Below the pieces are notes generated by a model. It saw only the letters and a list, made by a program, of their open reading frames with translations, was not told where the DNA came from and did no database searches. Both the position numbers and the translations under genes were made by a program. Of a stretch of 64,000 nucleotides of DNA, positions 49,788 through 59,648 are shown in pieces. The DNA comes from a virus. The stretch lies in the IMG/VR virus record IMGVR_UViG_3300031088_000734; one strand, 5' to 3'. Position 1 is the first letter of the stretch. Each line of letters starts with the position of its first letter.

Positions 49788-49816
49788 TTGACTTCTTGGT
49801 TTGTATTTGTTATTAT
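49788..49816 (+). promoter_or_regulatory. sigma70-like promoter of tRNA-like RNA
   Basis: TTGACT 49788-49793, 17 bp, TGnTATTAT 49808-49816. Confidence 0.75.
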
Positions 49817-49821
49817 TGAGC

Positions 49822-49917
49822 CACTAGATAGAGATGACGATGGAATCGCCTCACAGCAAGGTTAGATCATCTTTAGGTTCAGCGGCGATTGGTTGGGTTC
49901 GAGTCCCAGATCTAGTG
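49822..49917 (+). ncRNA. atypical tRNA-like RNA (acceptor stem + T arm, no valid anticodon arm)
   Basis: 8-bp CACTAGAT/ATCTAGTG stem, T arm TTGGG-TTCGAGT-CCCAG, internal 7-bp AATCGCC/GGCGATT helix; own promoter and terminator; no encoded CCA. Confidence 0.65.
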
Positions 49918-49919
49918 TG

Positions 49920-49950
49920 AGGACTTACAATTATGTGAGTCCTTTTTTTT
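49920..49950 (+). terminator. intrinsic terminator
   Basis: AGGACTTAC/GTGAGTCCT stem plus T-run. Confidence 0.8.
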
Positions 49951-58014: not shown

Positions 58015-58169
58015 GATAAACTCCTTTATTCTTTTACATTTTATTAGTAAAAAAAAATTAATCAAATGCAAAAAAAAACTGTTTGAAAGGTCTTGATTGC
58101 TTCGTTTCTTTTTGCTAGAATGGCTACATTGAATGAGACGACAGCTTCAAAGTCACTCAGGATTGTCAT

Positions 58170-58272
58170 GTGGATGTGTGAGCGTAATAGGAGAGTTGGC
58201 CCTCCGTCCTTGAATAAAGGTTACTCTACTGTTGTATTGGTAACGTAGGTTCAAATCCTACCATCTGCACCA
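58170..58272 (+). ncRNA. atypical 103-nt tRNA-like RNA
   Basis: GTGGATG/CATCTGC acceptor with G3.U70, A discriminator, CCA; perfect T arm GTAGG-TTCAAAT-CCTAC; long variable arm; anticodon arm defective; promoter TTGATT 58093 / TAGAAT 58116. Confidence 0.65.
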
Positions 58273-58313
58273 AATTGCTTGATTGTTGTGATGGATTGTG
58301 GTATAATCATCAC

Positions 58314-58554
58314 AGCAAACGAATTAGGAGCCTTCGTCAAAGAAGGTTGGATAGCAGCGGTGTCGCGGGCGAGCTATCACGAAAGGTGAGGAATACTCCC
58401 TTTCATAGTAACAAAGTCCATCGGGGTGTTTTCTGCCTTTGATTAAAACGCTTGGGTGAAGCGGTTCTTTGTTACGAACTTATTTGTCAATTAGCGAAGG
58501 AATTATAGTCCTAGTGGCTATGATTAAAACGGTTGGGTGAACTGGCCTTCGTTA
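58314..58554 (+). ncRNA. structured ncRNA unit 1 (5' domain plus two three-way-junction modules)
   Basis: promoter TTGATT 58279 / TATAAT 58302; stems covary with unit 2. Confidence 0.75.
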
Positions 58555-58605
58555 AGACCAATTTTAAAGGTTGTTATTTACAGGCGTTTGATGTATAATA
58601 GCGAC

Positions 58606-58772
58606 ATGTTAAACGAATACGGAGCAGCAGTTAAATGTTGCTGAATGGTAGCGGTGGTCGGGCGAGCCATTGTTTGAAGGAGAGGTGATTTCTTAGTCCC
58701 TCTCTTAGCAACAAGGGAATTGAGATGTTGTTGGTCTTGATTAAAACGGTTGGGTGAACCGGCTCTTGTTGC
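58606..58772 (+). ncRNA. structured ncRNA unit 2 (5' domain plus one three-way-junction module)
   Basis: promoter TTGTTA 58571 / TATAAT 58594; conserved loops and compensatory stem changes relative to unit 1. Confidence 0.75.
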
Positions 58773-58836
58773 AAACCCTATTCCAAAGAGTTGTTAAATG
58801 ACAGCTTTTTTCTTTTTAGCAGTGATGGAGATTGTC

Positions 58837-59049: not shown

Positions 59050-59065
59050 TGAAATACCTTTTTAT

Positions 59066-59173
59066 TGGTGAATACTCAATTTATTGAGGTCGTAGGCTAG
59101 TCCCTTCTTCACCAGCCAGATTTGCTGTAGGCTCTTGTAGCCTGTCCGACCGGGTTGTGACCGGGCAGCACCA
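59066..59173 (+). ncRNA. two tandem ~50-nt reduced tRNA-like folds, each ending NCCA (or decayed tRNA genes)
   Basis: 59066-59118 and 59124-59173: closing stem, one hairpin, GTC linker, T-arm-like hairpin, then GCCA / ACCA. Confidence 0.4.
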
Positions 59174-59325
59174 GACGGTGCCCACCTAACAGTGGAGTCG
59201 ATATGGCGTAGGTAATCGGTTCCTATTGCAGCAATGAAATTATTAACATTATTGAGAGATTCTTATGCCGACATACGAAAAAATCTGGACACGATTATAA
59301 AATGTTAGCCCTAGGAGGGTCAATT

Positions 59326-59487
59326 ATGTCTAGAAGTGTAAAAGGTAGTAAAGGTTGTGGTTATGAATACTGGTCTAAACGTCCTATGTGCTATTCTTCT
59401 CCCGGTCGTTGGGCGAAGCAAAAATGCCATAGAATTGAAAGACAACATGACAAAGAGTTAATCAGAACTGAACTCAAAGATCTTTGA
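59326..59487 (+). CDS. small basic protein
   Basis: GGAGG RBS; MSRSVKGSKGCGYEYWSKRP. Confidence 0.7.
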   Translation: MSRSVKGSKGCGYEYWSKRPMCYSSPGRWAKQKCHRIERQHDKELIRTELKDL

Positions 59488-59648
59488 GTGGTTCTTACAG
59501 AGCAAGACCTGCATTAAGCGAAGACTGGCAGCTTGATACGGGATTTATACCGGCCCAGCGGAGTAGTGGAGTGATAGGTGTATGCCTTGACCTTAGAAGC
59601 GATAATCTTCGGTGACTTGGTGGTGGAAAAAGATAAACCACATAGAGT

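Follow-up and report, generated by a model that had tools for sequence, protein, structure and literature searches.

Two neighbouring non-coding genes in a 64,000-nt stretch of viral DNA (in the following, the window, meaning this stretch at its full length) belong to what we are confident is a genuine family of structured RNAs. The window is part of an IMG/VR record (G000) of 179,373 bases and 34% GC. A structured RNA supported by covariation had been proposed in a first-pass annotation, and the homologues collected here bear this out: their substitutions keep the stems paired, and their covariation far exceeds that of shuffle and slide controls. Across nine full-length genes 96% of the complete structure is paired, and double changes are seen in 23 of its 45 pairs; few lineages stand behind the homologues, so that these and the following cell counts overstate the number of independent events.

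Two RNA genes in the window

Promoters were scored against the sigma-70 consensus at 12 positions. Three sigma-70-like promoters start at 58093, 58279 and 58571, ahead of a tRNA-like gene and of the two RNA units. Both units had been described as promoter-led and non-coding, and the promoters indeed lie just upstream of each. That of gene 1 (58279..58307, plus strand) consists of a -35 element, 17 nt and an extended -10 element, the latter retained among homologues; it matches the consensus at 10 of 12 positions, as does the promoter of gene 2 (58571..58599, plus strand). Stop codons interrupt every reading frame through both units.

Gene 1 (58314..58565, plus strand, about 252 nt, ends inferred) begins with the 5' strand of a closing helix P0 (58321..58328, leader GAAUWNGG), followed by the hairpins H1 (58329..58348), H2 (58350..58378) and H3 (58381..58404), which together form the head. 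Two three-way-junction modules (58408..58475 and 58491..58555) and the 3' strand of P0 (58558..58565) complete the gene; an alternative or vestigial P0 tail is found at 58479-58486. Gene 2 (58606..58783, plus strand, about 178 nt) has the same order with a single module: P0 5' strand (58615-58622), H1 (58623-58642), H2 (58644-58671), H3 (58678-58706), module 3 (58708-58772) and P0 3' strand (58776-58783). A terminator-like hairpin with a U run (58788..58810, plus strand) is seen in the fold 3' of gene 2, where the consensus terminator scan made no call. All sequence elements reported earlier were recovered in place, and both units are present, but they reach further than first drawn, to 58565 and 58783, by way of a closing helix that had been missed.

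The threefold occurrence of the 3' module was recovered as a 33-nt core repeat at 58440, 58521 and 58738, with only these three copies within the 179,373-base record. Folding z-scores against shuffles are -2.95 and -2.75 for the two 5' domains, and -2.3, -4.9 and -4.4 for the three modules. No known family had been recognised by inspection, and a search of Rfam 15 over 58314-58783 returned none at the gathering threshold (best E 0.6 in a search up to E 5). Two RNA runs contain only 6-9% of the sequence words, a figure that says nothing for or against expression.

The tRNA-like gene noticed directly in front of gene 1 was confirmed at 58170..58272 (plus strand), with its own promoter at 58093-58121; it lies outside the RNA family. 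Over 58093-58272 it combines a 42-nt leader, an acceptor stem with a G3-U70 pair, a perfect T arm, an aberrant middle and CCA, and it is not called as a tRNA by tRNA searches. Relatives carry one or two tRNA-like genes each, with differing inserts. On the other side of the RNA genes, two more structured non-coding segments (59065-59240 and 59485-59645) flank a small basic ORF, and the 3' half of the second recurs after the third gene copy in a distant relative, G001, at 79% identity. The ORF (59329-59487) encodes a 52-aa basic protein without a Pfam match, found near tRNA clusters in G000, G001 and a further relative, G005. As a specific partner of the RNA this protein was rejected, since unrelated phages encode it too, with no copy of the RNA close to it.

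Homologues and covariation

Homologues were sought by pattern scans of viral and metagenome contigs, by searches with neighbouring proteins and by covariance models. Close relatives are L001-L003, L010, L020, L101-L107 and L110; three are distant, namely G001 (437 kb), L021 and G005 (290 kb). After de-duplication the set holds 23 junction modules and 19 heads. The H2 pattern gave seven hits, one of them genuine (L010); the other six look like chance matches and lie in unrelated, GC-richer contigs. By blastn against phage and plasmid collections, the sole match was the T arm of the adjoining tRNA-like gene, and the module pattern is absent from the sampled genomes of 400 Pseudomonas and 400 Gammaproteobacteria.

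In the head, a 7-bp hairpin followed by a second covarying stem had been predicted, and both hold up: across 12 sequences all 180 cells are paired and 10 of 15 pairs are doubly changed, a score reached by none of 500 shuffles and far above that of slid registers. H1 has constant geometry, with a fixed 7-bp stem and a six-base loop ending in A; the loop itself, earlier taken as a fixed GTYAAA, is variable (N5-A). The geometry of H2 is constant as well: six base pairs, a 1x2 internal loop (A/RA), two G-C pairs and a GGYG-N(1-3)-CGG loop. H3 is an optional hairpin carrying a bulged U and is missing from two homologues.

Each module consists of a closing stem P1, a hairpin P2, a linker and a 5-bp hairpin P3. 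The repeated three-way junction with a compensating P3 hairpin, as first described, is well supported, since P3 is paired in 115 of 115 cells across the 23 distinct modules (with C-G, G-C and A-U swaps). The first four pairs of P2 are likewise formed in all 92 cells, and the sequences of P1 and P2 vary freely. The conserved A run of the junction stands, but the linker is UAAAA (22/23) rather than AAAA. A single G had also been placed after the P3 hairpin; in 14 of the 23 modules this G lies opposite a C and pairs with it at the top of P1, and in the other 9 it faces an A. The P3 pentaloop is RGGYG, realised as GGGUG (14), GGGCG (5) and AGGUG (4), and the GAA of the GGGTGAA word forms the 3' strand of P3, where it covaries (U-A to C-G and U-G changes). 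Throughout the whole RNA, the only invariant unpaired bases are those of the UAAAA linker and of the GGYG-type G-rich loops in H2 and P3.

The closing helix P0, which would join the 5' leader with the 3' tail, was predicted de novo by RNAalifold on the nine full-length genes and is made up of five pairs, a mismatch, and GG with CC. In this alignment it is 95% paired, with 2 of 7 pairs doubly changed and most others invariant or one-sided; across 13 units, 85 of 104 cells are paired against about 44 expected from local 8-mers. One head in G005 has a leader and a tail that are both off-consensus and still pair. This data supports, if more weakly than for the local helices, a model in which P0 closes each gene into one multibranch RNA; the helix is less certain, given that its pairs are mostly invariant and that its predicted probability is low in some units. 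Where a gene has two modules, pairing with the tail that follows module 2 is at least as good as pairing with the one that follows module 1. Module 2 is therefore probably enclosed in gene 1, which would then be a single 252-nt RNA with two modules.

Modularity and tRNA context

Genes of the family contain one or two modules, and their parts are shuffled among carriers. G001 has three complete genes, two of them without H3, and a lone module attached to a different structured RNA. The most distant carrier, G005, has three heads without modules and two modules that sit on another RNA, so that the two module types are encoded separately. The different RNA of G001 is promoter-led and lies directly 5' of the lone module (about 407980-408080; L019:250-370). 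In G005 a repeated RNA (three copies, core CAAGCGU..GGGGCG; G005:C1 114860-115100 and 129840-129910, minus strand) is fused to modules and flanked by tRNAs.

Most copies lie at most a few hundred bases from a T arm. In G005 this holds for 5 of 5 elements, all within 170 nt, at a density of 31 T arms per 290 kb; only one gene of G001 and its lone module lie elsewhere. The RNA tails resemble the 3' ends of the carrier's tRNAs plus an AAUUU spacer. Some copies either precede a tRNA gene by just 5-7 nt or have no promoter of their own, which suggests that such copies may be released by tRNA processing. Downstream neighbours differ by carrier (tRNA-Cys, tRNA-Met, tRNA-like genes or a terminator). 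This variety argues for RNAs acting in trans and against a cis leader, as does the finding that no consistent protein-coding family follows the genes, as would be expected of a riboswitch or cis-leader.

Carrier elements

The record that contains the window encodes two RNA ligases, TrpRS, Sir2, NAD kinase and TnpB, and G001 encodes GatAB, TyrRS, DnaK, an MCP and efflux genes; in its scanned pieces no ORF exceeds 800 aa. Neither a terminase nor a reverse transcriptase was found in five carrier records, all of them partial. The parent contig of L003, Ga0370511_0000001 (L101), measures 834,842 bp, compared with 152 kb for its IMG/VR piece, and the carrier records are therefore fragments of very large elements. 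We regard the carriers as a small clade of AT-rich giant extrachromosomal, phage-like elements, which may be either megaphage or megaplasmid-like; Al-Shayeb et al. (PMC7162821) noted putative plasmids of large size that have comparable sets of translation genes. The carrier DnaK is 66-68% identical to that of Gammaproteobacteria. A contig of Pseudomonas gregormendelii with a related RNA ligase was considered as a host clue and set aside (51% GC, RNA absent). G000, G001 and G005 have 19 short ORFs in common, including the 52-aa basic protein, and among these no known RNA-binding family was found in scans for 10 families.

Several other RNAs of the carriers resemble parts of the translation apparatus. 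G000 holds, roughly 10,570 bases ahead of the window (within L014), a close match to helix H43 of the 23S GTPase centre, and at 49816-49920 of the window lies an RNA shaped like the tRNA-like domain (TLD) of tmRNA, kept in G001 at 84% identity. In G005 (C1, about 183360-183420, minus strand; L093), a segment that by eye resembles domain IV of SRP RNA adjoins a head copy and a tRNA-Arg gene. G005 has 35 tRNA genes, including 13 for Leu and 2 with CUA anticodons; the tRNA genes of G001 include 6 for Ser, one CUA.

Proposed function and alternatives

Modules of this family duplicate, detach and re-join, and hence behave like self-contained binding units. Together with the neighbouring RNA mimics, this modularity makes a decoy or scaffold the most likely role, and from genomic context we tentatively favour a stable RNA that serves in this way for a host RNA-binding protein or RNase, a reading that falls a little short of probable. 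The multivalent sponge or scaffold suggested in the first-pass annotation is likewise plausible. Each unit would encode a stable RNA of 145-250 nt that acts in trans and is transcribed from its own sigma-70 promoter or possibly cut from tRNA operons by host RNase P/E. Its closed ends would protect the RNA, and the GGYG loops and UAAAA linkers would be presented as self-contained binding sites. The RNA may in this way titrate or scaffold a host RNA-binding protein or RNase whose target is the translation apparatus, and would belong to the carrier's presumed set of tRNA-, tmRNA-, SRP- and rRNA-like decoy RNAs. A bolder version, which we consider rather unlikely, is that a clade of giant elements (up to at least 835 kb, with neither a capsid nor a terminase gene in the searched parts) assembles a modular decoy arsenal to which this family contributes a multivalent member; its GGYG loops and UAAAA junction would disarm host defences or regulators directed at tRNA ends or the ribosome, amounting to an RNA-only counter-defence.

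Pairing with the tRNA 3' end has precedents in the 23S P loop, the RNase P P15 loop and the T-box antiterminator bulge. The GGYG loops might do the same with C72-R73-C74-C75 and in this way bind CCA ends, shield them or detect uncharged tRNA: CRCC and GGYG are exact reverse complements, the U/C variation of the loop mirrors the A/G discriminator, pentaloop G2 and G3 are invariant as in the 23S P loop, and the genes sit among tRNA genes. However, a 4-nt complement is statistically weak and C72 is normally paired, and we judge this function to be unlikely; if the target were instead the 16S anti-Shine-Dalgarno, the loop C variant would break the pairing. It is likewise improbable that the modules mimic pieces of rRNA and thereby sequester ribosomal proteins or rRNA-cutting toxins, with H2 standing for the 23S H13 or the 16S h23 apical loop and the junction for the H42-H44 GTPase centre. 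E. coli rRNA contains the motif AGCGGYG..GCR at three sites (16S 687 and 938, 23S 244) against 0.3 expected, but this 10-nt H2 pattern was picked post hoc, after the match was known. H13 is the best sense-strand model match, yet Watson-Crick pairs here replace its bulged-G motif. The GTPase-centre junction has the same order of helix, UUAAA, helix and purine, and the record carries an apparent real mimic of it; on the other hand, covariance models run on rRNA give E of at least 0.65, and weight-matrix scores are no better than on shuffled rRNA (p 0.1-0.99).

The proximity of tRNA genes, sometimes only 5-7 nt downstream, and the conserved junction purines could also point to an RNA that helps to free tRNAs from operons in the manner of theta ribozymes, whether as a processing element or as a small ribozyme of a new type. 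This we hold to be very unlikely, given that the window genes each have their own promoter and no tRNA after them, that the two modules are separable and that Rfam ribozyme families give no match. A pseudoknot between the P3 loop and the tail (RGGY with ACYH, 3-4 pairs), which would have suited a ribozyme, was rejected: P0 competes for the tail and explains it better, and C-loop variants are uncompensated. In the first-pass annotation, GGGTGAA and GCGGTG had been likened to T-loop segments of RNase P and T-box RNAs that bind the tRNA elbow (the interdigitated T-loops that clamp it in T-box stem I and in the S domain of RNase P), and GGGTGAA and GCGGT do lie within 20 nt of each other in E. coli RNase P RNA. 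This idea is largely refuted and by now highly improbable: GAA belongs to a covarying stem and RGGYG forms the loop, which leaves no possible U-N-N-N-A T-loop, and hence the RNase P-like word is not a T-loop here. Moreover, the two motifs stand in reverse order and on separable modules, there is no model match to RNase P, and neither T-box nor RNase P is matched up to E 5. Equally hard to sustain is the view that there is no functional RNA at all, but hairpins or repeats acting at the DNA level, or a template of the retron/DRT type. G-U pairs are frequent and the covariation is strand-specific, promoters stand just upstream of the units, and the five partial carrier records contain no reverse transcriptase gene, as a retron or DRT would require.

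The small separable modules (a 65-nt junction, a 60-nt head) suit direct synthesis, probing and use as bait. Domain swaps and copy-number variants occur naturally within the family, and its few invariant bases are ready targets for mutation. The carriers are of interest in themselves, as giant elements with many translation genes and RNA mimics.

Comparison with known systems

Literature searches for the motifs found none, the roughly 10,000 viral candidates of Fremin 2023 (PMC10690425) lying outside the comparison. Models of both domains gave no match to RNase P RNA, tmRNA, rRNA or the T4 tRNA region. Some likenesses were considered and dropped: those seen by eye to the 16S decoding site, h27, h28/h29 and h37 are no better than with shuffles, phi29 pRNA has no Rfam match here, and as a RegB target the invariant GGAG is helical and without the downstream consensus of PMC3014915.

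With 23S H42-H44, a junction of the family C type, and with the L10 leader, the module has in common zero-length linkers save for one U-A-rich linker of five bases between hairpins. Unlike them, it has no kink-turn and no conserved P2 loop, its P3 is unrelated, and models and weight matrices fail. CsrB, RsmY and RsmZ are also trans-acting RNAs with repeated short G-rich motifs in hairpin loops; here, however, the loops are GGYG rather than GGA, the single invariant GGA is helical in P0/H1, helix lengths are fixed within a closed multibranch fold, and Rfam gives no match. T-box stem I and the RNase P S domain have short words in common with these RNAs, which lack the T-loop geometry. GOLLD and ROOL, which are often found beside tRNA genes, are likewise structured non-coding RNAs of phages and prophages with unknown function. 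Their structures have been reported (bioRxiv 10.1101/2024.12.08.627333); they are far larger, and in the RNAs described here neither an Rfam match nor conserved complementary loops for cage-type contacts were seen.

The small RNAs rnaC and rnaD of T4 (species 1 and 2; NC_000866.4 70908-71171) are transcribed from the tRNA region and have no known role (PMC3014915). Like the present genes, they form an RNA pair of similar size class in the tRNA region of a large mobile genome. Both T4 genes were searched and show no homology in sequence or structure, and rnaC ends in a T arm that is missing from these RNAs, so that the upstream tRNA-like gene (58170-58272) is its better analogue. The question of what small stable RNAs do in the tRNA clusters of large mobile genomes goes back to T4 rnaC/D, and the family described here is an uncatalogued non-coding RNA family within this known class of tRNA-cluster RNAs.
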